Shown here: positions 1,292-36,054 of the stretch, in pieces
Numbering within the stretch: position 1 is the stretch's first letter
Layout: each line of letters begins with the position of its first letter
From: Patescibacteria group bacterium
Lineage (GTDB): Bacteria > Patescibacteriota > Gracilibacteria > Peribacterales > Peribacteraceae
Length of the DNA: 43,738 bases
Reading direction: 5' to 3'
NCBI GenBank assembly: GCA_043819035.1
Contig: JBDRFD010000029.1
Span: 1 to 43,738, forward strand
The notes under the pieces: generated by a model
What the model was told of the DNA's origin: nothing
Seen by the model: only the letters and a program-made list of their open reading frames with translations
Databases searched by the model: none
Translations under genes and position numbers: made by a program

Positions 1292-4200
1292 ATGCGCGAC
1301 TGGTCTTCCGAAAAACCACCCTTCATGGGGAGGGCATTGGGCATAATGGGGATCGCCATAGTGGCCTCACTGCTTTTTGCAGAAACCGTCTCTGCCCTCA
1401 CAATCAATCTTTTTCCGGAAAGTTTTAAAACAATTGAAAAGGTATTGGGCATAGGAGACTCCTTTGGAGATGGAACAATCCCCAAAGATCTGGAAGAAGC
1501 GCAATGCGGCGGATTTGATTACGAAGTTACAGTTGCAGATAAGATTCCAAAGGTAAAAGGACTCCCGGGGAGAGACGGCGATTACTTCGGCAATATTACT
1601 TCCGGTATGGCGGTTCGCAATGATGATGGATTCATAGCTCCCGGAGATGTGGATGTTTGTGGTTACAGAACCGCCTGCCGCCCCGATGATCCTGAATTTA
1701 GAATGGACGATGAAAGCGATGATGATACCGGCGGTGGCTCCCCCGGTGATTCTCCTGGTGATTCTCCCGGTGATACCACTGACGATGCAGATGGTGACCG
1801 TTATTTCCCACCCTTCTTCGACACTTTCCCATGTCAGCGTCCGCTCGGCGATGCCACTCCGGAAAAACCCCCTGTTCCAACCGGACGTAACGGCGAGGAA
1901 TTCCCTTTCACCTGCGGTGGAGCCGAAATGCCTGCAGACGGACATGTGTGCAAAGCGGAATATGATTCCAACACAGCACTCAACGGTGGCCTATGCGGAT
2001 GGCTTAACAACCGGTGGCTCTATGGATACTATCAAAAAACGGTCCCCGTTGATTATGAGTGCAATGATAACCGAGACCCGGACGGTGATGGATCACAACT
2101 TATTGGAAAAACCCTCTGCATGGTCACACTTTATTCTGGGAGTACACAATGCCGCTTTGTTACAAAAGAGGATGCTGCGCTGGGCTTCAATGAGAGGGTG
2201 AGAAAAAGAGACGAGCTGAACAACTCACAACCTGATGATCCCGGATTGAACAACAGCCAATATAAATTAGACTGGGAAGCCGAACGGCAGTGCTGCACTT
2301 ACCAGAACACCAATGGTAGAATTTACGGGCCTGATGGGGCATACGACACATCCGGTGACGATTCTTCGACAATGGGCCTCATCAGAAACTGCATACCGTG
2401 CGAAGGGAGCGATTGCAGATATATACCGGGGGAATCTCCAAAGCCGCGATGGCAATACTATCCTCCGTGGGCCATTGAGGTTGATAGGAGAGGGCCGTGT
2501 TTCTACTGTGTAAATATAGAAGATTCTACGGAAGAAGTATCTTGCGATGCCGCCAATGCCAGCGAGCCAATTTACCCCTGCGAGAATTTGGTCAGTTACG
2601 AATCAGAAAGCGGACTGACTTATTCGGCAAGAGAGCGCGGACAAAAGAGATACCGCTCATACTTCCGCCACTACACAGGCTCCTACTCGCGCGCAAAAGT
2701 CCCTTTTACAGACTATGAAGGAAAAAAGCATCTTAACGAAGAACCCAAGAAGTACGTTACGGATGACAGTTCAAAATCCAAAATCCCCGTCTCCTGCTAC
2801 CGGATGTACAAGGAGGCGGACTACAGGACGCAGGTTGCGAAGCCCAATCAAAAAGCATGTGTGATTGCCGCGTACTACGGCGAGCCCGATCGCAACTTCT
2901 GGGAAATGGGCCGACGAGCCACTGTGAAGAGAGGCCCGAAACCGCTCAAAATACGAGGTACACAGGAGGGCAAGGGTGAGTACAACTGGGAGTTCCTGGA
3001 CATCCCGGCTCTTATCCGCGATACAACTTTTGATGAAGAAAAAGATCTTTGGTATTCGGGTATCGGCAATGCTTTTTCTCTGACGAATGGAAAAGTGATG
3101 GAAGAGAGATACAACAATGACCTCACAATGGTGCTGCTGCAGCCTTCGGATTCCGCGCATCTGGAAGCCGGCATTCAGCTCTATTACACCGAAGAAGATG
3201 AAGAGAACGAAGAGAAGCAAAAAGTGGCGCTCTCGTCCGGCGCGCTGATGCGGGCGTTTGATGATACCGTGCATGCGGAATATGTTTATGTCCCGGGTAT
3301 GGAATGGTATCCGGACCAAAGAACAATTGCAGAATGGTGGCAGCGGCAGGAAACGATGGCGAATCTGCTCTTTAAGCCTCCTGCCATTCATCTTTTACTC
3401 CCACCTGCCTGGTCTGTAGGCCTCGACCCGCTTGATCCCCTCTTCACCCCGGAGATTATTGAAAGTCAGAACCTTTCCAAAGACCCGCGCATGCAAGTGC
3501 TGGACGTGCAACTGGAAGCAAATGAAGATTTGATTGATGTGGTGAAAGCATTTTTGCAGAAGACGCTCACGCCGCAGTTGGAAGAAGAACTCATCCCTAT
3601 CCTTGTCCCGCTCGGATCACCCACGGAATTCCGTGCGCTGGCGGAAAAGTGGAATGCTTGGGCCATCGCGCAGAAGAAGCGCGGTGGGTCCGGAGCGGAT
3701 GAAGCTATCGAACTGGCTGCAAAGCTGGAACAGTACGCACGACATATCGAAGAGGTGCGCAAACTGCGCGGCGAGCTCGTGTGGTTCCATACAAAACTTC
3801 TGGAACACCAAACGGTAATTACCGAGACAATCGGCGCATGGCTGAATGAAGATGTTACCGCTAAGTATGACGAGTTTCGCGACCTTTACGCGCAGCTTGA
3901 GCCGCTCAGGGCAACCTGGCAACAAACGCAATCAACCTACAGAAAAATGCACGACCAATCTTCCATGCCCTGGTGCCACAATGAGCGGTTCACCGTGCCT
4001 ATTTATTCTCTGCTGGATGAATGGATGACAAGTCGCACCGAGGGCAGTGTTGACCTTACGGGTGGAAAGTGGAGAAAGGCGCAAAATTCTGTGGGAGATC
4101 TTGCATCCCTTGTCGTCCCGCGCATGATCGACGGCGTCTTTGACTTTACGGCGCTGCGAGCCGCATCCGGATCACTTGAGGTTCCGGTGCTTGATCCCAT

Positions 4201-9550: not shown

Positions 9551-11239
9551 ATGATGGCATCTCTTCCTTCGCAGGCAGCCCGAACAATGCGATGCGTCAT
9601 ACGGATGACACTTGTTATCGTACTGTTCGCACTGTCAATTTCCGCTTTCGCTGATGATACTGCCGTTGATAGCTTATGTAAGGGCGGAGAAGATGAGGCT
9701 GTGGAGGCGATCCTGAATTCCGTAACTCCCGTTTCCGCACACTTTACACAGAAAGTGCTCGACCGGGCGGAAAAGGGAATCGAGGAGGCATTCAGCCATA
9801 CTCAGACTTTCAATGACAAAGATTTTATGTCATGGGCAGAGCATACATTCCAGGCCTTCTCCGCAATTATCGATACCAAGTTGCGCCTGATCTATCAGGA
9901 ACGAGACTTAAGAGAAAATACAAGCTGCCTGCATATCGATCTTCTGCTGATCGAGACGATGATGGAAAAAGTTCGTTGCAAGATTCAGTTCGCGTTCGAA
10001 AAGAAGCAGCATGTCACCATCCTCCAACTCAAAGACATCATCATCTTCCTGAATGAATCGTATAACGATCTTTCGGAGGGTGCGCGGCACAACGCGTATG
10101 TGGCTTCGGGTTACCCGCAGAGCCGATCATTTGATGCCGATCCGGCCTGGTGCTGCCGTGACGGAAAGATGTGTGAATTATTCTACGAGCCGGGAGAGTG
10201 CGGCGGGAACAAAGAGGAAACCGTGTACTCATGCATGATTGAGACTGATTGCGGCTCCATGAAGCTTTGCCCTTTTCATTCGGACTATCTTCCCCCGTCT
10301 TCTTTCGGAAGCGGAGGGACTGTATTTGGGTACGGGTGTGATCTTGGAATCATCAGCCGCTACAGTTCCATCAGCGCTCCGGACTCTAAAATCGGAGATG
10401 CAATAAACGCGGAGGTAAAAGCCATGCGGGAATTAATCAATGAACGTGACAAATTTATTACGGACTCCATGCACCTAAAAGAAGACGCAACTAATCTTGA
10501 TCTCTGGATGGGAAGGGCTCCTTCTCCGAGACTTGAGTATTTTGGTATGACAGTCGACTCCCAACGTGAGCACTACACTGTCTTCGGATGCAGCGAAAGC
10601 CCATATGCATGGTCAGCTCCAATCTCGGACGAAGAAGAGGAAGAAGGAACCGACAGAACTCCGGACAGCCTCTGGCCGCCCATCTGGCCCGCCGGCGCAA
10701 TCCGGTGGCCGACATATGGAGCGTTCTCTTTTAATCGAAATGAGCTGCAGCTAATGAAGGAATATAGAAAGCTTCGCGAGGAATGGGGGAAGAGGAGGCC
10801 GCTCGCTTATGAGCTTCCTGATCAGTTTGGCTTCTACTTTTTCCTCCAGCTCTACTTCAGAGGGCAATTCAAGCTTTGGGACATATATCAAGAGCGCCTC
10901 ACAAGCACTATCGTCGCGCACGCAACCGATGTTCCCCGCCGCATAATCGCCGAGCTTACTCCACTGCGAGAAGCAGTAGGTGAATTCTCAACGTATGCAT
11001 CTGTTCTGCCGGCTGCCGATAGCGGGGCAGAAGCAAAAGGAGGCATCCGAGGTTTTGCCCGCGGGCTAGCATATTTCCTAAGACGCTCATGTATCACACG
11101 CCCGTGCAACGAGCGTCTCGAGCGCATCCTCAGGGTCGTCCTGCAGGACAAATGTTTCCCGTACACCGGCGGTAACTACAGCGGAAAGGTGTGGGAAGAT
11201 TGCAAGAAGGCAGCTGAGCTCGATGAATTTGCTCCTTGA
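9551..11239 (+). CDS. Secreted/anchored Cys-rich hypothetical protein (562 aa), operon gene 5
   Basis: ATG at 9551 lies 1 nt after the gene 4 stop. The hydrophobic N-terminus is MRCVIRMTLVIVLFALSISAFADD. A Cys cluster reads CCRDGKMCELFYEPGECGG. Confidence 0.75.
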   Translation: MMASLPSQAARTMRCVIRMTLVIVLFALSISAFADDTAVDSLCKGGEDEAVEAILNSVTPVSAHFTQKVLDRAEKGIEEAFSHTQTFNDKDFMSWAEHTFQAFSAIIDTKLRLIYQERDLRENTSCLHIDLLLIETMMEKVRCKIQFAFEKKQHVTILQLKDIIIFLNESYNDLSEGARHNAYVASGYPQSRSFDADPAWCCRDGKMCELFYEPGECGGNKEETVYSCMIETDCGSMKLCPFHSDYLPPSSFGSGGTVFGYGCDLGIISRYSSISAPDSKIGDAINAEVKAMRELINERDKFITDSMHLKEDATNLDLWMGRAPSPRLEYFGMTVDSQREHYTVFGCSESPYAWSAPISDEEEEEGTDRTPDSLWPPIWPAGAIRWPTYGAFSFNRNELQLMKEYRKLREEWGKRRPLAYELPDQFGFYFFLQLYFRGQFKLWDIYQERLTSTIVAHATDVPRRIIAELTPLREAVGEFSTYASVLPAADSGAEAKGGIRGFARGLAYFLRRSCITRPCNERLERILRVVLQDKCFPYTGGNYSGKVWEDCKKAAELDEFAP

Positions 11240-11320
11240 GGAGCCGGAGATTAGGGGTTAGGCCGGAGGCCAGTCGCACATTACTCATCCTCCTAGACCA
11301 AACCCCTAATCTCTGGCTCC
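11240..11320. repeat. Inverted repeat with 20-bp arms (19/20 match) directly after the operon stop
   Basis: GGAGCCGGAGATTAGGGGTT (11240..11259) pairs with AACCCCTAATCTCTGGCTCC (11301..11320). This is a possible operon terminator hairpin. Confidence 0.85.
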
Positions 11321-11360
11321 ACAGAATATCTGGTAGGGGTTTGGCTTAAGAACGACAGTA

Positions 11361-11490
11361 AGGTTATAGGTGTTAGGTTAAATAGGTTTGGGGGATAGGT
11401 GTTTGGGTTGAAAGGTTATTATTAGCAACCTATTCCCTCATTACCTTTTCCCCAAACCCATCACCTATAACCTATAACCCTATCGTAAAT
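11361..11490. repeat. Imperfect long palindrome built from GGTTATAGG / GGTTTGGGG units
   Basis: The left arm reads AGGTTATAGGTGTTAGGT...GGTTTGGGGGATAGGTG. The right arm reads CCCCAAACCCATCACCTATAACCTATAACC. Confidence 0.6.
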
Positions 11491-11564
11491 AGTACTTCAT
11501 ATTTCCCTATAAGCTACCAGCCACAACCTAGTCTGCTAAACTATCACCAACTCCCCTCCTCACT

Positions 11565-12014
11565 ATGAACCTCAAACAGCGCAACTCCTTCACCCGACTC
11601 CGCACACTCCGCCGAGGTTTCACCCTCCTCGAACTAATGATCGTGCTAGGAATATTCGGTATCCTCGCCCTCATCGTTCTGGTTGCAATAAATCCAACCA
11701 AACAACTAAGCGAAGCACGCGGCGCGAACCGTCATGCGTCCGTGAGGGAAATAGAGAACGCTGTCATCCAGTACATCATTGATGGAAATGCGCTCGCAGG
11801 TATCCCCGCGGGAAAAATAAACTCACAGGATATCTGCAGAACAGGAATCTCGGGTGCGTGTTACGAACTCGATGTCCTTTCTCCGACGTATTTAGTCTCA
11901 CTTCCCATCGACCCGGACGAAACGGACCCGGATCTCACGGGTTATCGAATTTACATGCTTGGCAGCTTCATCAAGGTCTGCTCGCCGAGGGTGGACACCG
12001 ATTGTGGGACGTAA
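11565..12014 (+). CDS. Type IV pilin-like / pseudopilin protein with a prepilin N-terminal cleavage-methylation motif
   Basis: RRGFTLLELMIVLGIFGILALIVLVAINP matches the class III signal (G|FTLxE followed by a hydrophobic helix). The C-terminal region contains a Cys pair. Confidence 0.85.
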   Translation: MNLKQRNSFTRLRTLRRGFTLLELMIVLGIFGILALIVLVAINPTKQLSEARGANRHASVREIENAVIQYIIDGNALAGIPAGKINSQDICRTGISGACYELDVLSPTYLVSLPIDPDETDPDLTGYRIYMLGSFIKVCSPRVDTDCGT

Positions 12015-12045
12015 AGAAAGGGTAAAGTGTAAGGGGTAAGGGGAA

Positions 12046-12430
12046 AGGGGAAAGGGAAAATGTCTGAACCGTAGATTACGAACAATGTCTGAATCACGGA
12101 TATTACCTCTCCCCTCGATCCCCTCTCCACAGGAGAGGGGAAGCTCTGTTATTGCAGAAAACAGAGTTTTTACTTGTTAAACGAAGCTCCCCTTCCTCCC
12201 GTGGAGGAAGGGGCCGGGGGATGGAGGTAAAATCCGTGATTCAGACAACGTAAGAAGTTATGACAGAGATAAGTCTGAAACTAGGATTTGAAAGATTATC
12301 GACCTTCGCCTCTTGGCTACTAGGGACAAACTATGCTACGACCGATAAGAAAGGATTAAAGGATTAGCATGATTAATCTAGTTAATCCTTTAATCATGTG
12401 AATCATGGTCCCAGACAATTTGCTATCAGT
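12046..12430. repeat. Non-coding composite of nested palindromes, bounded by a ~70-bp direct duplication of the pilin gene 3' end
   Basis: It contains a family A inverted repeat (12086..12247), family B twin hairpins (12120..12213) and ATTAAAGGATTA...TAATCCTTTAAT (about 12354..12392). It is flanked by 11974..12045 and 12431..12500. Confidence 0.7.
12086..12247. repeat. Family A inverted-repeat element (TGTCTGAATCACGGAT arms)
   Basis: TGTCTGAATCACGGAT (12086..12101) and ATCCGTGATTCAGACA (12232..12247) are a perfect 16-bp inverted repeat, extendable to about 25 bp. Relatives lie at 20704..20820 and 35953..36054. Confidence 0.85.
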
Positions 12431-12599
12431 TCGCCGAGGGTGGACACCGATTGCGGAACGTAAAAAAGAGTAAAGTGTAAGGGGTAAGGGAAAAAGGGTA
12501 AGGGGAAAACGAATTTAATCAAGTTTTCCACTTTCCCTTTTCACTTTTCAGTTTCTTTCCGTTTCCCTTTACCCTTTTCCCCTTTAGAATCAACTCTCT

Positions 12600-15500
12600 A
12601 TGCAGCCCTCCGATTTCGTCCACTTACATTGCCACTCGACATATTCCTTGCTCGAAGCCCTACCAAGCCCTGCAGAGATTGTCGAACGTGCAAAAGAGCT
12701 CAAACAAACGGCCGTGGGAATCGCGGATAAGGGCTACACCTACGGGCTCGTGGAATTCTATAAGGTCGCGAAGGAGCAGGACATCAAGCCGATTTTGGGA
12801 ATGACAACATATGTTGCGGCACGATCGCGCCACGACCGCGAACGCGGGGTGGACTCGAAGCGTTACCCGCTTGTTCTCCTCGCAGAGACACAGGAAGGTT
12901 ACTCCAACCTATTAAAGCTTGCGACATTCGCCGCACTCGAAGGCATGTACTACAAGCCGCGTGTCGACAAAGAGCTTCTCAAAAAATATGGGAAAGGATT
13001 GATCGCACTAAGCGGACCAATCAGCGGTGCAATCCCAAGGGCGGCACTCGCAGAAGATGGAGAAGCACTCACGAAGCTGGCTGAGGAGTATTGGTCATTC
13101 TTCGGCAAAGAGAATCTCTATTTTGAATTGATGGATTTGCCGGAAGTTGCAGGGCAAGCGGAGGTGAATCAACAACTCATTAAATGGGGAAATGAACTCG
13201 ATGTGCCGCTGGTCGCAACATGCAACAGCCACTACTGCCGTCCGGGGGATAGTGAAGCGCACGATGTGCTGCTGTGTATTCAGAAGAACGCGAATGTAAC
13301 TGACCCGAGCCGCTTTTCCATGCGAGACACGGACTTCTCCATGCGCCCGTTTGAAGAGTTGGAGAAAGCTTTCGAGCATGCACCACAGGCTCTGGAAAAT
13401 ACACGTGTGATTGCAGACCGTTGTGACGTCACATTGGAATTTGGAAAGTACCATATCCCCCGCTTCCCTCTCCCAAAAGGGACAACAGAGGAACAAGAGC
13501 TGAAACGGCTCGCCGAAGAAGGCCTGAAGAAACGCTACAGAAAACCCACCAAAGAGCATCGAGAACGTTTGGATTATGAATTGAAAATCATCGAACAAGT
13601 TGGCTTTGCCGGGTACTTCCTGATCGTCTCGGACTTTGTAAACGAAGCAAAGAGCAGAGGGATTACCGTAGGACCGGGGCGAGGATCTGCTGCAGGTTCG
13701 ATCATTGCTTATTGTTTAGGAATAACCGGACTTGATCCGCTCGAACACGGACTTTTCTTCGAACGTTTCCTGAATCCTGAGCGTATCTCGATGCCCGACT
13801 TTGATATCGACTTCGCCGACACGCGCAGAGATGAAGTACTCGAGTACGTTCGCGGGAAATATGGAGAAGATCATGTTGTGCAAATCTGCACCTTTGGAAC
13901 ATTGGCAGCCAGAGCCGCTGTAAAAGACGTCGGTCGTGCGTACGGCGTTCCATTCTTGGAGATGAATACGCTTGTAAAATTCATTCCGGAGCGCCCGGGC
14001 ACCACACTCGCGGAGGCACTGGAAACGAGCGAACTCAAGGCCGCCTACGATAGCAACAAGACGTATAAGCAGATCATTGATACGGCGCTCAAACTTGAAG
14101 GAAAAGCTCGACACGTTTCAGTCCATGCATGCGGCGTGATCATTACCGAAGAGCCGGCAGTGCATAACACCGCCCTTCAGCGCGCGCCAAAAGATGACCT
14201 GACGATAATCACACAAACCGCTGCCAAACCATTGGAAGCGTTGGGCTTGCTGAAAATGGACTTCCTGGGGCTGATGAACCTCACAGTAATCCAGACAACA
14301 CTTAAAATTATCGAACGAATCGATAAGAAAAAACTTGATATTTCTTCCATCCCCCTCGACGACAAAAAAACCTACGCGCTTTTGCAGCGCGGCGATACAA
14401 CCGGCGTCTTCCAGTTGGAATCCGGAGGAATGCGCCGGTACTTAAAGCAACTCAAACCAACGGAGTTCGAGGATATCACCGCGATGATCTCACTCTTCCG
14501 CCCGGGCCCCATGGAATGGATACCCAGCTTCATCAAACGCAAGCACGGCAAAGAGGAAGTGAAGTACATACACAAAGATCTGGAGCCGATCCTCAAGCCC
14601 ACACATGGTATCGGAGTTTATCAGGAGCAAATTCTGCAGATGGCACAGACCTTTGCGGGGTTTAGCCTGGGTGAGGCGGACCTCCTGCGTCGTGCCATCG
14701 GGAAAAAGATAAAAAAGGAGCTCGACGCACAGCGTGAAAAGTTTATTGAGGGTTCCAAAAAACAGGGATATGACGAAAATCTTGCTATCAAGATCTTTGA
14801 CGACGTAGTAATGCCCTTTGCGGGATACGGGTTTAATAAATCACATGCCGCGGGTTATGCGCGCATCTCTTACGAGACCGCTTACCTAAAAGCAAACTAC
14901 CCTGCGGAGTTTATGGCGGCGCTCCTGAGTAGTGACGCGCAGAGAACTGATCGTGTGATGATCGAAATCGAGGAATGCCGCACGATGGGAATGGAGGTGC
15001 TGCCTCCTGACATTAATGAGTCGCTCAGGCACTTTACTGTGGTCCCAGGAACTGACAATCTGACCAAATCAGAAATCAGAAATCAGAAATCACAAAACAT
15101 TCGCTTTGGGCTGACCGCTATTAAAGGTATTGGGGACAGTACCGTTCAACAGGTGATCGCCATCCGTGATGAAGGCGGCAAGTTTGAAAGTATTGAGGAT
15201 TTCGCCAAACGCATTCCCGCAAAGATTCTAAACAAGAAGCTCTTGGAATCGCTCGCGAAGTCAGGTGCGCTCGACTGTTTTGGAGAGCGTCATGTGCTTG
15301 TAGAACACTACGACAGTATCGTGAACTTTGCGAAAGCTTTTGGTGATGTGAGCAGCTCTCAGACCAATCTCTTCGCAGGGATGGACGAAGCGATGACCGC
15401 GCCTACACTTGAATTCCCTGAAACAAAGGAGGCCTCGCTGCAACAGAAACTACAATGGGAAAAGGAAACGCTTGGTCTGTATGTTTCCAGCCACCCGCTC

Positions 15501-16406
15501 GCAGGCCTAAAGAAGTACATAGGCAAGAAGGCGCAGTTGGTCGCCAACCTCACAACGAAAGAAGTCGGTAAGAAGGTGACACTCGCCGGCATTGTGGAAG
15601 GGGTAAAGAAAATTACTACGAAGAAGGGGGAAACAATGGCAATCGTGTTCCTGGAAGATCCGACCGGAAAAATAGAAATCACGCTTTTTCCGCGAACATA
15701 TGCAGAAGCGGCTGAGTTTTTGGAAGAGCCTGATGTTGTCCTTGTCGCAGCCGGAATGCTCGACTACCGCGCAGGCCAGCTCCAGATGCGTGCCAACGCG
15801 GTGAAGAAGGCATCACTTTCCACAATGATTTCTCACGCCAAAGAGCAGGGATTCTTCGATGAGGAAGAGGCCAAAAAAGGAATCTCCTTCGTCAAACCTA
15901 TTCTGGACGAAGAGGAGCAGGTGGAGGTTCTGGATGAGGAAGGCAATGTGGTCGCAGGAGAAACTGTCACAATCAGTGAAGGAAAGGAGGAAGAGGAATA
16001 TTTGGGGCCGTTGGGTTCGTGGATCATCGGAGGAATGGATACTACTGATGTTTTGAAAGTTATTGGATTATATAAAGTCCCGGAATCAGGAATCAGGAAT
16101 CAGGAATCTGAAAATTCCAAGAAACAATCCCCGAATTCCAAATCCCTGATTCCTGATTCCACCCCAAAAACGGAAGAAATAACATCTCCCACCCACATTT
16201 CTATCCACACGATTGAACTCCCCGAGCGCGCACCGAAGAAAATGCTCCTGGATCTTAAAAAGGTTCTCGAAACATTTCCCGGAAAAGAGAAGGTGCAGCT
16301 TAAGATTGGCAAGCAACTCATTCCCCTTCCCATGACCGTTAGTTATTCAACCATTCTGCTCAAGAAGGTCGATGAAGTGATTGAAAAGTATTCCGCTGTT
16401 GCATGA
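12600..16406 (+). CDS. dnaE: DNA polymerase III alpha subunit
   Basis: The PHP-domain start is MQPSDFVHLHCHSTYSLLEA. Other motifs are MPDFDIDF, GLLKMDFLGL, an OB fold (VTLAGIVEGVKKITTKKGETMAIVFLEDPTG) and a C-terminal extension. Confidence 0.97.
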   Translation: MQPSDFVHLHCHSTYSLLEALPSPAEIVERAKELKQTAVGIADKGYTYGLVEFYKVAKEQDIKPILGMTTYVAARSRHDRERGVDSKRYPLVLLAETQEGYSNLLKLATFAALEGMYYKPRVDKELLKKYGKGLIALSGPISGAIPRAALAEDGEALTKLAEEYWSFFGKENLYFELMDLPEVAGQAEVNQQLIKWGNELDVPLVATCNSHYCRPGDSEAHDVLLCIQKNANVTDPSRFSMRDTDFSMRPFEELEKAFEHAPQALENTRVIADRCDVTLEFGKYHIPRFPLPKGTTEEQELKRLAEEGLKKRYRKPTKEHRERLDYELKIIEQVGFAGYFLIVSDFVNEAKSRGITVGPGRGSAAGSIIAYCLGITGLDPLEHGLFFERFLNPERISMPDFDIDFADTRRDEVLEYVRGKYGEDHVVQICTFGTLAARAAVKDVGRAYGVPFLEMNTLVKFIPERPGTTLAEALETSELKAAYDSNKTYKQIIDTALKLEGKARHVSVHACGVIITEEPAVHNTALQRAPKDDLTIITQTAAKPLEALGLLKMDFLGLMNLTVIQTTLKIIERIDKKKLDISSIPLDDKKTYALLQRGDTTGVFQLESGGMRRYLKQLKPTEFEDITAMISLFRPGPMEWIPSFIKRKHGKEEVKYIHKDLEPILKPTHGIGVYQEQILQMAQTFAGFSLGEADLLRRAIGKKIKKELDAQREKFIEGSKKQGYDENLAIKIFDDVVMPFAGYGFNKSHAAGYARISYETAYLKANYPAEFMAALLSSDAQRTDRVMIEIEECRTMGMEVLPPDINESLRHFTVVPGTDNLTKSEIRNQKSQNIRFGLTAIKGIGDSTVQQVIAIRDEGGKFESIEDFAKRIPAKILNKKLLESLAKSGALDCFGERHVLVEHYDSIVNFAKAFGDVSSSQTNLFAGMDEAMTAPTLEFPETKEASLQQKLQWEKETLGLYVSSHPLAGLKKYIGKKAQLVANLTTKEVGKKVTLAGIVEGVKKITTKKGETMAIVFLEDPTGKIEITLFPRTYAEAAEFLEEPDVVLVAAGMLDYRAGQLQMRANAVKKASLSTMISHAKEQGFFDEEEAKKGISFVKPILDEEEQVEVLDEEGNVVAGETVTISEGKEEEEYLGPLGSWIIGGMDTTDVLKVIGLYKVPESGIRNQESENSKKQSPNSKSLIPDSTPKTEEITSPTHISIHTIELPERAPKKMLLDLKKVLETFPGKEKVQLKIGKQLIPLPMTVSYSTILLKKVDEVIEKYSAVA

Positions 16407-16508
16407 TATATACTATCTATGAAATGGTTGGACGGTTCTAAAGTGGCAACAAGCCTGAGAATCGCTTGCGAGCCATCCAGCCATCCAACTATCCAGCCAT
16501 CCAACCAC

Positions 16509-17135: not shown

Positions 17136-17447
17136 ATGACTAGAATTGATACTAGCTCCATGGTCTCACATTGGTTGGATACCACAAATCGAACTGGAGC
17201 AACTGTTTTGGCTTCAATGAACGGATTACCGCCTGAAACTCAACTCCTAATGATGCAAAAACTTGCCGAGATGCGAGCAGGAACCCATTTGTTGGCCTCA
17301 AAAGCTTTCAGTATGGATGCCTTCCTGCACGAAATGGATCAGGAACTTCTCAGAAGAACGAGAGAACATTATCATCCAAATCCACTTCCTAAAGAAATTG
17401 AAGAAATCTTTCGTAGAAAAGGAGATCCAGACTCAGGCGAAAATTAA
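17136..17447 (+). CDS. Hypothetical protein (103 aa)
   Basis: ORF only, with no recognisable motif. Its composition is plausible for coding sequence. Confidence 0.45.
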   Translation: MTRIDTSSMVSHWLDTTNRTGATVLASMNGLPPETQLLMMQKLAEMRAGTHLLASKAFSMDAFLHEMDQELLRRTREHYHPNPLPKEIEEIFRRKGDPDSGEN

Positions 17448-17458
17448 ACATATAATAA

Positions 17459-17489
17459 ACGCAGCTGCGACGCGGCGTCGCAGCTGCGT
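17459..17489 (+). terminator. GC-rich near-perfect palindrome with 15-bp arms; possible terminator or a mobile-element end relic
   Basis: ACGCAGCTGCGACGC-G-GCGTCGCAGCTGCGT lies 12 nt after the stop at 17447. No T-run follows it. Confidence 0.4.
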
Positions 17490-17655
17490 ACTGGAACCGG
17501 AGAAATTCAATTCCATTCTCATGGACTGGCTGGTCTGGTACAACTGTGAAAGGCCACATTATGCTCATAAACTGGAAACCCCACTCCAATTTCTGTTATC
17601 CTTCTCCAAGACCCAGCAGGAGTGCAATTACAGGTGGACCGATACATACACTTGA
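17488..17655 (+). pseudogene. C-terminal remnant (about 55 codons) of a DDE integrase-type (rve) transposase
   Basis: The translation ...FNSILMDWLVWYNCERPHYAHKLETPLQFL... matches the conserved W-YN-x-RPH-x-L-x-TP tail of IS3/IS481-type transposases. No catalytic core lies upstream. Confidence 0.6.
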
Positions 17656-17680
17656 CTTACAAGTAGGTGTAGTATACGTT

Positions 17681-17962
17681 ATGCTCATGAGTAACCCATT
17701 TGAAGCAGAAAGTTTAACAGAAAAGGCAGCAAGGCAACAGGCACTAAATCATTCCTGCGGAGAGCTTGGCCACCGCATTTCACCATCAGAAGGAATGCAA
17801 CAAGCAGATGGCTCGTGGTTATTTGGTCTTGCTATTGTCGGTTGTGAGCCTGATGAAATGGCGTTAAAACAAATTCCTGGTGCGTCATTGACTGTCCGCC
17901 CGGACGGCCGAATTGATGGGACCACACACGAAGAATTAGTGAAGCTTATTGGAGGCAAATAG
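17681..17962 (+). CDS. Hypothetical protein (93 aa)
   Basis: ORF from ATG 17681 (MLMSNPFEAESLTEKAARQQ...). No recognisable motif. Confidence 0.4.
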   Translation: MLMSNPFEAESLTEKAARQQALNHSCGELGHRISPSEGMQQADGSWLFGLAIVGCEPDEMALKQIPGASLTVRPDGRIDGTTHEELVKLIGGK

Positions 17963-20894: not shown

Positions 20895-21926
20895 ATGATG
20901 CCCAAAAAGAAACCCAAAAAGAAACCGGGCCGAAAAAATCTGAGCCCAAAAGCCGCCCGTAAAGCTTTTTTACAGAAGCAATTTATGCAGGCCCAGCAAC
21001 TTGTCTTCAAAGAAAAAGCTCGCCAGGAAGCTACTAAAGGGGAACACAAAGAGGAAAGGGCAGCTGGGGAAGAGCTCGCACAGGAGCAGCTCAGTGAGAG
21101 ACAGCTTGAGGAAGAAAAGCAAAAGAAGGGGCGTGAGGAATGGAAGAAGAAAGAAGAAAAGGAAAAGGAGCTCCTCGCAGAAATGAAACGCAAACAAGAA
21201 GAAGAGAAGAAAAACCGCCGGAAATTCAAAGAACATCTGCAGGAGGAAGAGAAAAAGAATAAGCAACTGATGGAAGATCTCGCCGCTTCGAATGCCATCC
21301 GAGATAAAATGGAACGCAGAAAGATGGAAGGAGCTAAACTGGAAAGAGATACCAGGGCAGAGGCGAAAAGTACCGAAAACCGCAAACAGAATGAAGCTGA
21401 GATGAACGCAAAGAGTAAGAAGAAACAACTGGAATTGGCTAACAGAAAGGTGCAGGGGAAAATAGATGAAGAAGAACGGAGCAAAACGTATGTACTGGAG
21501 GATGAAGCACGAAGGCAAAAGGCAAAGCTTGACAACCAAGAACGCAAAAAGAAATCTGATCTTAAGTTCGCCTATGAACGCAAGCGAGCTGAAACACAAC
21601 GATTCACGAATCCGTATCAACAAAAAAGCGAAGTTATGAAGATTGACCGTGGGGAGCAAAGTGAACTGAAAAAGATAGAGGCAGAAACGCGCAGGCAGCA
21701 ATCGGAAATTGATGCGAAAACCAAGAAGGCGATCTTCGATGTTCAAAAGGAAGCAAGCCACAAGCGCGGTCAGGCCGCCTCGGATGAGCGCGGGCAAATA
21801 ACGCAGATCGACCTGGAGAAGCGTGAGGCCAAACGCCTGGCAGAACTGGAGGCCTCGCAGAAAAAGGCCGGCATCCGCCGCAGGCAGATCAAGATTTTGC
21901 ACGGAGAAGAGGAAACGGATTCCTAA
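20895..21926 (+). CDS. Highly charged Lys/Glu/Arg-rich low-complexity protein (343 aa)
   Basis: The plus frame gives a coiled-coil-like K/E/R sequence. The antisense ORFs are F/L/S-rich shadows. The 3' end has a diverged second copy at 22659..22715 with mostly synonymous differences, which supports this reading frame. Confidence 0.6.
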   Translation: MMPKKKPKKKPGRKNLSPKAARKAFLQKQFMQAQQLVFKEKARQEATKGEHKEERAAGEELAQEQLSERQLEEEKQKKGREEWKKKEEKEKELLAEMKRKQEEEKKNRRKFKEHLQEEEKKNKQLMEDLAASNAIRDKMERRKMEGAKLERDTRAEAKSTENRKQNEAEMNAKSKKKQLELANRKVQGKIDEEERSKTYVLEDEARRQKAKLDNQERKKKSDLKFAYERKRAETQRFTNPYQQKSEVMKIDRGEQSELKKIEAETRRQQSEIDAKTKKAIFDVQKEASHKRGQAASDERGQITQIDLEKREAKRLAELEASQKKAGIRRRQIKILHGEEETDS

Positions 21927-21962
21927 TGCACCGAACCAGGATTGAGGAGCTCCACTTCGTCT

Positions 21963-22319
21963 TCAAGAGTCACCATCCATATCGTTAAGCATTATGGTGA
22001 TTACTTTTTTGAGAACAGGCAGGTCTTTTTTAACAGTATCCCATACTCTCTGAACATTTGTCGCAGAGTATTCGTGAATGAGAATGTTGCGCATACTAAT
22101 AGCTTCCTTCCAGGATATCTGCTTGTACTTCTTTCTTAAAAGAACCGGCAGTTTACTGGCGGCTTCTCCGATAATCGATATCTGACGAATGACAGCATCC
22201 TGAGTTTTATCATCTCTACAAAACAATCTCTTCCCTTCGGTTGTGTATTCCTCAATATGAACAATGGCATTCAGGATATCATCCAAATATACCCGAACAT
22301 CTTTCTGTTGCTTGGTCAT
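21963..22319 (-). CDS. hepT: HEPN-domain (DUF86) toxin of a HepT/MntA-type module
   Basis: The R-x4-H motif is MRNILIHEY. The size and the 4-bp overlap with the upstream nucleotidyltransferase gene fit. Confidence 0.85.
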   Translation of the reverse strand: MTKQQKDVRVYLDDILNAIVHIEEYTTEGKRLFCRDDKTQDAVIRQISIIGEAASKLPVLLRKKYKQISWKEAISMRNILIHEYSATNVQRVWDTVKKDLPVLKKVITIMLNDMDGDS

Positions 22320-22627
22320 AATGCTCGAGCATCGGAAAGAATGCGCCTGCGTAGCGCAGGCTTGATGCTATCATCCGGAATAACATCTATTTTCCTTTGC
22401 AGAGTTTCTTCCAAATCAATTTTTAGTCCTGCAAGATCAAATAGCGTACTCCCCTTTGGCATCTTCACCAGAAGATCCAGATCGCTGCCCTTGGTCTGTT
22501 CCCCGCGGGAAAAAGAGCCGAAGACACGTACATTGCGCACTCCATGTTTGCGCGCAATACGCAACACCGGTGCACGCAGTCGTGCCATATTAAATCTCGC
22601 CTTGTGCAATTTCTTCTGATTGCTCAT
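22316..22627 (-). CDS. mntA: Minimal nucleotidyltransferase (MNT) antitoxin
   Basis: VFGSFSRGEQTKGSDLDLLV contains the GS-x-RGE...DxD nucleotidyltransferase motif. Confidence 0.85.
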   Translation of the reverse strand: MSNQKKLHKARFNMARLRAPVLRIARKHGVRNVRVFGSFSRGEQTKGSDLDLLVKMPKGSTLFDLAGLKIDLEETLQRKIDVIPDDSIKPALRRRILSDARAL

Positions 22628-22729
22628 AGCCTTATTATATCAAAGAACTATAAGACATAGAAAAAGGCCGGTATCCGCCGCAGGCAGATCAGAATCTTGC
22701 ATGGAGAAGAGGAAGAGTAATACGGCTTC

Positions 22730-32439: not shown

Positions 32440-33010
32440 TGAGCAACTGAACACCCCTCGCCTTAAAGGCGAGGGGTTCGCGCTGCACTGAAGTGCCCTC
32501 GTTATTGGATATCCACAGTTCCGTGCTGCAATTCTTCTCCTTCTTGATTATCGATGTATTCCTTAATCATCTCATCTGTGATCGCACCACTTGATACTGC
32601 AAGGTATCCTCTTGCCCAGAAATGACGCCCCCAGAAGGTTTTGCGGACAGATGGAAAGAGAGAAAACAGTTTGTAAGGGCTTTCCCCTTTGATCTTTTGC
32701 ATAAGTTTTGAAATTGAAAGATGTGGTGGGTAGGATGCGAAGAGATGGACATGATCAATGGCAACTTTCCCTGAGATGATCTCTACATCTTCTTCCTGAC
32801 ATATTTGACGGATGAGATCTCGTACTTTCTCTCCAACTTGCCCATACAGTATTTTTTTGCGGTATTTTGGAACCCAGACTAGATGAACTTTAAGATCGTA
32901 TTTGCTGTGAGAAGTGGTGCGATAGTGCCTCATAAAAAGGCCACGTAGGGTACCACAAGTTGAGTAAGTGTCGAACTGAAGTCTCCGCCTAAAGGCGGGG
33001 GGTTTCACCC
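32440..33010 (-). mobile_element. IS200-type insertion sequence (IS200/IS605 family, tnpA only); boundaries approximate
   Basis: tnpA is flanked by subterminal hairpins CCCCTCGCC-TTAAA-GGCGAGGGG (32454..32476) and CTCCGCC-TAAA-GGCGGGG (32983..33000). Confidence 0.8.
32502..32933 (-). CDS. tnpA: IS200/IS605-family Y1 (HUH) transposase TnpA
   Basis: Motifs are MRHYRTTSHSKYDLKVHLVWVPKYRKK, the HUH motif HVHLF, and a C-terminal Tyr region (YIDNQ). I moved the start to 32933 so that the upstream hairpin is non-coding. Confidence 0.9.
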   Translation of the reverse strand: MRHYRTTSHSKYDLKVHLVWVPKYRKKILYGQVGEKVRDLIRQICQEEDVEIISGKVAIDHVHLFASYPPHLSISKLMQKIKGESPYKLFSLFPSVRKTFWGRHFWARGYLAVSSGAITDEMIKEYIDNQEGEELQHGTVDIQ

Positions 33011-35952: not shown

Positions 35953-36054
35953 TGTCTGAACCACAGATTACGCAGATTTCAACATAAGACCCTGTTGCTC
36001 CTTAAACTTGTATCAGTGAAATCTGCGTAATCTGCGTAATCTGTGGTTCAGACA
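35953..36054. repeat. Family A-related inverted repeat with a 9-nt unit expansion in one arm
   Basis: TGTCTGAACCACAGATTACGCAGATTT (35953..35979) pairs with AAATCTGCGTAATCTGCGTAATCTGTGGTTCAGACA (36019..36054). Confidence 0.85.

Follow-up and report, generated by a model that had tools for sequence, protein, structure and literature searches.

The window analysed here, a stretch of 43,738 nucleotides (contig JBDRFD010000029.1) from a member of the Peribacteraceae, raises the question of why the 3′ end of a pilin gene occurs twice, once in the gene itself and once as an orphan in front of dnaE, and what kind of event left the second copy there. The pilin gene (11565–12014, forward strand, as are all genes, copies, hairpins and tracts with a strand below) is an open reading frame of 149 aa. 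Its product is type IV pilin-like: the N terminus carries a class III signal with the methylation motif GFTLLELMIV, followed by a hydrophobic helix, and the Pfam profile PF07963 (N_methyl) matches residues 16–39 at 33.1 bits against a cut-off of 21.2 (E = 3.5e-8). A Cys-x8-Cys loop lies at the C terminus. The gene downstream (12600–16406) was named dnaE, for the alpha subunit of DNA polymerase III (1268 aa), from a reading of its translation and its conservation, the first 200 residues being 76–87% identical in relatives. As the conserved downstream neighbour, it served as the synteny anchor when the locus was compared between genomes.

The last 33 nt of the pilin gene, which read SPRVDTDCGT-stop, occur exactly twice in the window (11982–12014 and 12431–12463), and no match is expected from 100 shuffles. 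As an earlier note on this DNA had reported, both copies encode the same residues and differ in their coding part only at TGT/TGC and GGG/GGA, both synonymous. The note's start for the first copy, 11974, is corrected to 11982, and the start-to-start spacing is 449 nt rather than 457 nt. Beyond the stop codon the likeness runs on into G/A-rich heptamers, and positions 11982–12060 align with 12431–12508 over 79 nt at 90% identity, with a single indel (genome-wide blastn, E = 2.6e-21). Copy A (11982–12060) consists of the last 30 coding nt and the stop codon of the pilin gene, followed by 46 nt of heptamers that make up the left arm of a terminator-type hairpin, with no right arm directly after it. 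Copy B (12431–12509) consists of the orphan tail at 12431–12463, with no usable open reading frame upstream, and a hairpin left arm that belongs to a complete long hairpin before dnaE (12470–12585; left arm about 12470–12513, then the apex, then the right arm at 12529–12585). Either left arm can pair with this right arm. Past the stop codon, the repeat belongs to a family of hairpin arms with 25–35 copies in the genome, which leaves the 33-nt coding tail as the main locus-specific part of the duplication. A promoter and terminator scan of 11200–12700 gave nothing above shuffled expectation. Searches of the genome by blastn and tblastn detected no other pilin 3′ fragment and one distant paralogue only, which refutes the suggestion of a silent-cassette-like system.

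A second tail could also be the product of a strain-collapsed or chimeric assembly, or the A/B differences a mosaic of two strains. Against this, contigs assembled independently from two further groundwater runs reproduce both new junctions: the A-to-insert junction is bridged over 12007–12161 with 0 differences and the insert-to-B junction over 12202–12460 with 2 differences. The locus also lies midway in a 43.7-kb contig, and since the longest exact match between A and B in the window is no more than 23 nt, the repeat could not have confused an assembler at the usual k. On the other side, the window's version of 12460–12710 was not seen in the metagenomic runs compared, and A and B seem identical in a related strain, so that the assembler could have picked the two synonymous differences, bubble by bubble, from variants of different strains. 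We regard an artefact, which the earlier note had named as its refuting case, as very improbable. The related strain is otherwise 98% identical, and the break points of its contigs imply that it carries the A/B repeat too, with A equal to B over at least 55 nt: contigs end at 12011 and at 12460 (12011 + 449) and start at 12007, which is the pattern expected at k = 31 from an exact repeat that starts at 11982. A contig that skips 488 nt was considered as an empty-site allele and withdrawn, its ends matching this pattern. The contig graph of runs X1 and X2 can be read as a filled locus or as an empty site accompanied by a circle of 449 nt, as contigs cannot phase a repeat of at least 55 nt, and in both runs the depth of the insert contigs is about 1.45 times that of the flanks. 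Runs X3 and X7 contained only conserved pieces of the elements or dnaE genes of relatives and are uninformative for the locus. The marine metagenomes X4–X6, each with a 0.06 share of the sampled words of the query, do not bear on habitat.

Comparison with the same strain delimits a diverged tract at 12594–12710, with about 27% differences, which takes in the final 6 nt before dnaE and 111 nt of the 5′ end of that gene and changes only 3 residues. This is a recombination tract adjoining the duplicated region; both versions of the exchanged dnaE 5′ end are within the interspecies range. A larger imported tract, 12047–12710, was considered and withdrawn, as the hairpin right arm at 12535–12593 is about 98% identical between the strains and only 12594–12710 is diverged.

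The 370 nt between the copies are a mosaic of MITE/BIME-like palindromes with the termini TGTCTGAAY...RTTCAGACA. The earlier description of this interval as 385 bp made entirely of nested palindromes holds for most of it and fails for 12248–12349, which is a linker and an interrupted element arm. Folding of the intergenic region 12015–12600 gave −117 kcal/mol (z = −10.9), with a 162-nt palindrome containing three inner hairpins and a second hairpin element. Read from the left, the insert begins with an isolated left terminus, TGTCTGAACCGTAGATTACGAACAA (12061–12085), a fragment that also stands in front of full elements at two further loci (contigs C86 and C67). It is followed by element E1 (12086–12247), the 162-nt palindrome, with termini TGTCTGAATCACGGAT and ATCCGTGATTCAGACA, an outer stem and a twin-hairpin core, of which the genome has about 9 full copies. 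The conserved linker ACGTAAGAAGTTATGACAGAGATAA (12248–12272) joins successive elements at several loci, its sequence following elements as their right flank on contigs C17, C24, C86 and C5; elements joined in this way give a BIME-like doublet architecture. Element E3, a long form (12273–12417), has the left end GTCTGAAAC and the right terminus GGTCCCAGACA; its arm is interrupted by a segment of about 50 nt (12300–12349), after which come a GGATTAA-type hairpin and the right terminus, and an interrupted element like it stands before dnaE in the related genome G001. A 13-nt spacer, ATTTGCTATCAGT (12418–12430), separates the last element terminus from copy B, recurs nowhere else in the genome and has no likeness to the pilin gene.

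These palindromes are ordinary residents of the genome. About 43 paired TGTCTGRA...TYCAGACA units, with a modal length of 100–120 nt, are present in its 1.29 Mb, their terminal 9-mers are 7 times commoner than expected, and copies also occur in sister genomes. Like MITEs and REP/BIME sequences, the elements of the insert are small, non-coding, intergenic and dispersed in many copies with terminal inverted repeats; the insert contains no recombinase and no open reading frame longer than 35 aa. The seven Y1_Tnp (PF01797) genes of the genome were considered as mobilisers of the palindromes and rejected, as none of the seven is flanked by TGTCTGAAY...RTTCAGACA elements. The idea that palindromes always lie in the apex of larger hairpins was likewise dropped, flank complementarity being equal to that of controls. 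An Rfam search of 10500–13500 (E ≤ 1) returned sub-threshold matches to microRNA-type hairpins and no known RNA family, and an 18-mer across the element/spacer junction, scanned against genome contigs, had only chance matches in unrelated phyla.

Could the palindromes themselves have made the repeat, by duplicating 79 nt of target as they transposed? Copies A and B do bracket the element array, as an unusually long target-site duplication would. Of the 34 element clusters of the genome, however, a single one exceeds the control distribution in flanking direct repeats; copy B is not in contact with an element terminus but lies beyond the 13-nt spacer, and several gene-end duplications elsewhere have no such element. 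Because the elements normally lack long flanking repeats, the 79-nt repeat is not their target duplication, and an origin of this kind is largely refuted and can be given almost no weight. The same results count against the view, put forward in the earlier note, that an element landed at the 3′ end of the pilin gene and brought that end along or rebuilt it: the insert is drawn from a genome-wide palindrome family, has neither reading frame nor recombinase, and is set off from copy B by unique sequence.

Relatives offer a different model for the locus. Orthologues of the pilin are 84% identical in genome G003 and 66% identical in G006 and G007. In G006, a genome of the same genus, two tandem pilin genes lie directly before dnaE, that is, an intact tandem state at the orthologous position. 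The two genes have 72% DNA identity overall, with a difference-free stretch of 68 nt near the 3′ end, and the first ~80 nt after their stop codons are also alike; their 3′ ends and downstream arms are homogenised. The number of pilin genes beside dnaE is 0 in G001, G004, G005 and G007, 1 in G003 and 2 in G006, and since it varies across the genus, gain and loss must be frequent. At least two pilin genes were present at 25 of 80 metagenomic loci with pilin relatives, some pairs being near-identical at their 3′ ends. Among the pilin tails of relatives, the one closest to the repeat is that of the dnaE-proximal G006 paralogue, which matches copy B at 27 of 33 positions and copy A at 25; in copy B, all 8 codons for residues shared with it are identical. 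The genes that most resemble the pilin of the window in their bodies have tails that match at only 21–22 of the 33 positions.

We tentatively favour reading copy B as a stump, left over from a second pilin gene that was lost, without placing this above an even chance. We infer that this lineage had a second pilin and lost it by deletion. That gene would once have stood between the present pilin gene and dnaE, and gene conversion would have kept the 3′ ends and the following hairpin arm alike among the tandem pilins. Deletion of the body and promoter of the dnaE-proximal paralogue would then have left its tail and the complete terminator hairpin, copy B being its last 33 nt and terminator arm, without function. 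The gap between the tails is taken up by ordinary small palindromic (MITE/BIME-like) copies that were not the makers of the duplication. A stump is suggested by the position of copy B, which sits where the dnaE-proximal tail sits in G006, directly before the hairpin and dnaE, and by the G006 locus itself, where the repeats are arranged alike but enclose a whole gene. Only synonymous differences between A and B are expected if these arose while both copies were in working genes, and the equality of A and B over at least 55 nt in the 98%-identical strain fits continuing conversion between the copies. That palindromes make no long flanking repeats elsewhere supports this reading as well. The earlier note had offered, as its alternative, the relic of a second pilin allele; with the tandem pilins of G006, the closeness of codons and the synonymous differences behind it, this part of the note fits better than the insertion of an element.

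The sequence between the tails has no residual homology to a gene body. Neither the body nor the promoter of a second pilin has left a trace there, which speaks against a stump: from 12017 to about 12425 all is repeat-family sequence, and tblastn with the pilin gives only a 12-residue tail, ISSPRVDTDCGT. Genome G003, the closest by pilin sequence, has a single pilin and no stump, and pilin-tail relics upstream of dnaE were found neither there nor in G001. The codon argument, for its part, concerns 33 nt and one reference paralogue, to which copy A is almost as close as copy B. A scan of metagenomes with the pilin protein had a best match of 59% identity and detected no strain-level relatives and no empty-site or donor allele.

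The arrangement is not peculiar to the pilin gene. In a genome-wide self-BLAST, the layout of gene, tail, unrelated insert and tail recurs at about 16 genes, with repeats of 30–343 nt, and in this one symmetric test on a single 1.3-Mb genome duplicated 3′ ends were found at 16 genes and duplicated 5′ ends at 4. The cargo varies (a HepT/MntA-like pair, a methyltransferase, small open reading frames, hairpins), and none of the inserts inspected contains a recombinase. In at least 16 genes the 3′ end is repeated further downstream, and near most of them there is no hint of a tandem paralogue; this points to a general process that needs no paralogue. One can imagine a regular, polar and as yet undescribed process in Peribacteria and other CPR, in which any DNA, be it palindromes, toxin-antitoxin pairs or single genes, may be inserted just after a gene with duplication of 30–340 nt of its 3′ end and with no recombinase left in the inserts inspected, perhaps triggered at long, heptamer-built terminator hairpins or proceeding through a small excisable circle of repeat plus insert; we consider this doubtful.

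A close rival to the stump reading is one-sided homologous recombination, of the homology-facilitated illegitimate recombination (HFIR) or insertion-duplication type, in which an import displaced the end of the resident gene. The donor, from a related strain, would have supplied the 3′ part of a pilin gene or a whole allele, together with a left hairpin arm and the palindrome array. One end would have joined by homology in or upstream of the pilin gene and the other illegitimately, 33 nt before the resident stop codon, making copy A donor-derived and copy B the displaced original end of the resident gene with its terminator intact. A single event would thus explain why A has only a left arm and palindromes and B a complete hairpin, and it would account for the sharp left edge of B and for the same layout with varied cargo at about 16 genes. 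The region is moreover a recombination hot zone, as judged by the 27%-diverged, mostly synonymous tract at 12594–12710. Type IV pilins serve DNA uptake in many bacteria, and this genome encodes them. HFIR, as the account in PMC3240628 defines it, is an established route in naturally transformable bacteria, and its layout of an anchor repeat flanking other DNA fits the locus, where one junction would be illegitimate. Against import, scans of metagenomes and genome contigs found no donor-like or empty-site genome, both dnaE 5′ versions lie in the interspecies range and give no direction of exchange, and the likeness to the second G006 paralogue needs an earlier, separate event. Nor does HFIR predict the 3′ excess of 16 to 4, for which selection must be invoked. 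One-sided import is possible, at a level that we would place below that of the stump.

Copying at the terminator hairpin and integration by a recombinase have less in their favour. Replication slippage or template switching at the long hairpin could have copied a short unit of gene tail and hairpin arm twice, with palindromes settling later in the first unit. Contigs C64 (4300–4710) and C87 (11450–11980) do carry gene tail and hairpin together as two to three tandem copies that lie almost or entirely back to back, hairpins immediately after stop codons would explain the 3′ bias, and A and B look identical in the related strain, as they would after recent local copying. Slippage nevertheless seems unlikely: copy A lacks a right arm, the array of three element parts would have had to insert later exactly at the junction, and the 13-nt spacer shows no significant similarity to the apex that follows copy B (p about 0.2), giving no sign that the first unit runs on past the insert. 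A remnant of a site-specific integrative element, with attL and attR at the gene 3′ end, now reduced to non-coding DNA and mobilisable only in trans in the manner of a CIME, is a shade less likely still. Direct repeats of 55–79 nt over a gene 3′ end are the classic footprint of a tyrosine integrase that rebuilds the end of its target, two tyrosine recombinase genes lie elsewhere in the genome, and the contig graph of the related strain, with an insert depth of ~1.45 times the flanks, is also compatible with an empty site and a 449-nt circle. Yet the 370-nt insert, with no open reading frame longer than 35 aa, encodes no recombinase, no integrase lies nearby, and PF00589 matches occur only on other contigs (C44 and C83). 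One or two integrases could not have used all of the gene ends concerned, about 16 with repeats that differ in length (30–343 nt), as sites, and the insert is made of ordinary dispersed repeats.

Taken together, these data argue that the feature is most likely neither a new mobile element nor a pilin-switching system but a silent scar that recombination has left in the genome of a tiny groundwater bacterium. We are fairly confident that copy B in particular is such a scar, as opposed to a transposition footprint or a functional cassette. It is silent in that the pilin protein is unchanged and no reservoir for pilin variation is provided. The number of pilin genes beside dnaE changes between species, with tails and terminator arms kept alike by recombination and palindromes filling the gaps, and the scar serves as a marker of the turnover of surface-structure genes in very small uncultured genomes. 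Should the 3′ excess reflect a dedicated mechanism, as opposed to selection on the products of ordinary recombination, it would amount to a new way for bacteria of the Candidate Phyla Radiation to acquire genes.

The locus recalls several known systems in part. Like attL/attR elements and CIMEs it has direct repeats over a gene 3′ end that bracket an insert and leave the gene intact; unlike them it has no integrase, no cargo genes and an insert of dispersed repeats, and no evidence of excision was found. With pilE/pilS of Neisseria it shares a partial pilin gene that lacks promoter and 5′ end, lies near the expressed pilin and has the conserved 3′ end in common, but here there is a single 33-nt fragment with the same 10 residues and no variable region, which has no new sequence to donate. 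The palindromes resemble the REP/BIME sequences of enterobacteria and MITEs such as Correia, RUP and ERIC in being imperfect, with conserved termini and tens of copies, and in lying in intergenic DNA after genes, often in arrays with conserved linkers. Their termini, TGTCTGAAY...RTTCAGACA, and their size of 85–160 nt are particular to this lineage, and in contrast to REPs with their RAYT no parent transposase was identified among the seven Y1 genes, nor any Rfam match. As in HFIR or Campbell-type insertion-duplication, and in transformation-generated duplications (PMC3784515), an anchor repeat flanks unrelated DNA with one sharp junction and no recombinase is needed, and many gene ends of this genome are laid out in this way; in contrast to HFIR, the repeat is short (79 nt), no donor or empty site was seen, and the 3′-end bias is not a known property. 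Tandem paralogue clusters that evolve by recombination in conserved gene ends, such as the lpl cluster of Staphylococcus aureus (PMC2568036), and the pseudogene stumps that deletions leave behind differ in that here only 33 coding nt are left of a presumed second gene, whose presence in this lineage is inferred, and the gap is filled by dispersed palindromes. With such clusters the locus shares neighbouring paralogues that recombine in a conserved end and the adjoining intergenic DNA and vary in copy number, a state that is preserved intact in G006.

The open reading frame at 11565-12014 encodes a 149-aa product with a C-terminal Cys-x8-Cys loop and a match to the prokaryotic N-terminal methylation motif (PF07963) that scores 33.1 bits, above the cut-off of 21.2; these two features identify the frame as a type IV pilin-like gene. 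The sequence of its final 33 nt (SPRVDTDCGT-stop), at 11982-12014, is found again at 12431-12463 and at no other site in the window, and no second match to a tail of this length is expected by chance. The two copies, A and B, differ in their coding part only by TGT/TGC and GGG/GGA, both synonymous, as an earlier note on this DNA had claimed; the start coordinate given there, 11974, has to be raised by 8 nt, and the copies are spaced by 449 nt, not 457. Past the stop codon the likeness runs on into a G/A-rich heptamer run, and in a self-comparison of the whole genome 11982-12060 and 12431-12508 aligned across 79 nt at 90% identity with a single indel (E 2.6e-21). The apex and right arm of the hairpin (12529-12585) are present after copy B only, immediately before dnaE at 12600; copy A leads into the insert. 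The longest frame through copy B spans 21 codons and starts at a GTG within a palindrome. The search for further pilin 3′ fragments, proposed by the earlier note with silent cassettes in mind, found none in the genome, where the only other pilin is a single 44% identical paralogue. Long post-gene hairpins were seen in the window at 11237-11480, 12017-12060 and 12470-12585. Their heptamer words vary by locus (GGGGTAA/GGGGAAA and GGTTATA/GGGTTTA; CGTTTAT-type in the same-genus genome G006), and on contig C21 of the window's own genome GGGGTAA-type words form a tandem array of more than 200 nt (21018-21239).

Logan contigs from two groundwater-metagenome runs of one study, X1 and X2, contain a strain ~98% identical to the window. 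Since only ~60% of the query's sampled 31-mers were contained in these runs, they are probably not the window's source. Groundwater as the habitat and the small genome are both consistent with a member of the Peribacteria (CPR). One contig (12007-12161) bridges the junction between copy A and the insert with 0 differences, and another (12202-12460) bridges the junction between the insert and copy B with two. The earlier note had raised the prospect of an assembly artefact at this site; with both junctions present in the contigs of this strain, we consider that highly improbable. The contig carrying the pilin stops at 12011 and the one running from the insert to copy B at 12460, which is 12011 plus 449, and both outgoing contigs begin at the position corresponding to 12007. 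At k = 31, these ends indicate an exact repeat from 11982 to ~12036, and we infer that the X1/X2 strain has the same structure as the window, with no difference between copies A and B across 55 nt or more. Given this repeat structure, a contig that apparently skips 488 nt (12046 to 12535) is the path from copy B to the hairpin, placed on copy A. An alternative state, consisting of an empty site and a 449-nt circle or tandem array, would yield identical contigs. In both runs the depth of the insert contigs (12007-12460) was ~1.45x that of the pilin and dnaE contigs on either side; additional copies, as tandem units or as a 449-nt circle, could be the cause, as could a second strain or short-contig noise. 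At 12594-12710 the window differs from this strain by 29 substitutions in 108 nt, with 3 residue changes, between flanks that are 98% identical, and this segment is a short recombination tract that includes the first 111 nt of the essential gene dnaE. The window's version of 12460-12710 was absent from every run compared.

Relatives of all parts of the region from 12017 to ~12425 were found elsewhere in the 1.29-Mb, 100-contig genome, leaving the two coding tails as the only locus-specific sequence. Small palindromes that share the conserved termini TGTCTGAAY...RTTCAGACA make up the insert as an array. A lone left terminus (12061-12085) comes first, followed by a 162-nt element (12086-12247) that combines an outer stem with a twin-hairpin core. 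Next is a 25-nt linker (12248-12272), which also connects elements at several further loci, and then, at 12273-12417, the long form of an 85-nt element, with an interruption in its left arm. Paired units number ~43 in the genome, most of them 100-120 nt in length, and their terminal 9-mers are 7 times as frequent as expected. Within the window the family is represented at 12061-12417, 1020-1185 and 35953-36054. Its stems are variable and built of heptamers (GGATTAC/GGATTAA words), and its units are often doublets connected by the linker ACGTAAGAAGTTATGACAGAG. Each of the seven same-genus genomes searched contains copies, as do other genera of the taxonomic family; in one of these genomes, G001, a similar interrupted element precedes dnaE without a pilin there. 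No Rfam family matched the palindromic elements.

The twin-hairpin core was observed at 12105-12232 and 1038-1167 of the window, on contigs C23, C5, C78, C93, C50 and C12 of the same genome, and before dnaE in G006 (locus L025) and in a further genome, G010 (locus L031); three different species thus have one upstream of dnaE. Its right hairpin, GCTCCCCTTCCTCC-CGT-GGAGGAAGGGGC, is nearly invariant, being 90-95% identical even across genera, and its left hairpin exists in two compensating versions, CTCTCC/GGAGAG and TCCTCC/GGAGGA. Seven matches to Y1 transposases (IS200/IS605-type) were detected in the 1.3-Mb genome, at 32544-32903 of the window and on contigs C83, C2, C18, C33, C1 and C52. None is flanked by palindromic elements of the insert family, and no mobilising enzyme for these elements was identified among the seven genes. 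The C83 transposase gene lies between ATTTGCGCAAAT-type palindromes, which belong to a different repeat family.

The earlier note had suggested that an inserted element carried or regenerated the pilin end. Flanking direct repeats exceeded the control distribution at only 1 of 34 element clusters, 13 unique nt separate the last element terminus from copy B, and nesting in larger hairpins was not a general trait of the clusters. The palindromic elements did not make the pilin-tail duplication, and a long target duplication of their making is very improbable.

The number of pilin genes before dnaE varies within the genus. G006 has two in tandem, G003 has one (84% aa identity to the window's pilin), and G001, G004, G005 and G007 have none, G007 carrying two tandem pilins on another contig, away from dnaE; in G002 this region coincides with a contig end. 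The tandem pilins of G006 are 72% identical overall, with 68 nt near the 3′ end that show no difference, and the first ~80 nt after their stops are alike and form the left arm of a hairpin. G006 has the same layout as the window, except that a whole gene separates the repeats. Of 80 metagenomic loci carrying more distant pilins, 25 contain at least two pilin copies, and some pairs share 3′ ends. Codon by codon, the best match to the window's repeat is the dnaE-proximal gene of G006 (27/33 for copy B, 25/33 for copy A), and all 8 shared-residue codons of copy B are identical to it. The tails of the first G006 gene and of the G003 gene match the repeat at only 21-22/33, despite having the closest pilin bodies. 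This discrepancy between tail and body would point to exchange of the 3′ end with a gene of the second-paralogue type, a history that, over 33 nt and against one reference sequence, is suggestive only.

Local direct repeats were also scanned symmetrically across the genome, comparing the last 150 nt of genes with downstream, and the first 150 nt with upstream, non-coding DNA. With crude ORF-based gene calls, 16 genes had 3′ ends repeated downstream and 4 had 5′ ends repeated upstream (p ~0.01, two-sided binomial). The cargo between the repeats differs from locus to locus. At 21859-22714 of the window it consists of two small minus-strand ORFs. On C12, 343-nt direct repeats (16132-16474 and 17445-17787, 94% identical), each composed of 118 nt from the 3′ end of an ATP-grasp/MATCAP-domain gene and one palindromic element, surround a minus-strand methyltransferase gene. 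On C7 the last 35 codons of an Eco57I-type methylase gene (2428-2532) are repeated 0.8 kb downstream (3237-3341) as an in-frame but diverged (82%) tail, after two small ORFs without a Pfam match. A unit made up of a gene tail and a long heptamer hairpin occurs in two to three tandem copies 3′ of an unannotated gene on C64 (4300-4710) and of a glycosyltransferase gene on C87 (11450-11980). Several distal copies contain stops or frameshifts. This genome-wide recurrence is the aspect that deserves follow-up.

Taken together, the pilin-tail duplication is real and well explained in kind: all the evidence points to copy B as non-coding debris, probably from recombination, and the product neither of transposition nor of a pilin-variation system. 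As to its history, we tentatively favor one in which there was once a second, dnaE-proximal pilin gene, whose tail, as seen in G006, had become homogenised with the tail of the first gene; copy B would be its remaining stump. The main alternative, possible but less likely, would be a one-sided homologous import, of the HFIR (homology-facilitated illegitimate recombination, in the definition given in PMC3240628) or insertion-duplication type. The palindrome array, and perhaps the current pilin allele as well, would have arrived with the imported DNA, and the resident tail would have been displaced along with its intact terminator. Such an import accounts for the absent right arm after copy A and agrees with the genome-wide pattern of 3′-end duplications, but it requires selection for the 3′ bias and an additional event for the likeness to the second paralogue. 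Local slippage at the hairpin is improbable, and a reduced integrative element slightly more so.

Both components of the locus belong to known kinds. The insert is a set of dispersed palindromic repeats of the REP/BIME and MITE kind, its linker-joined arrays resembling enterobacterial BIMEs and its single units MITEs. The repeat family itself seems to be undescribed; the 2016 report of Peribacteria genomes (PMC4736985) does not mention such elements, and the terms 'palindrom', 'hairpin' and 'intergenic' are absent from it. Copy B is not part of a pilE/pilS system, and the pilin-tail duplication belongs neither with transposons that form target site duplications nor, on present evidence, with integrase-borne elements; it is of the kind known as a recombination scar or gene stump.
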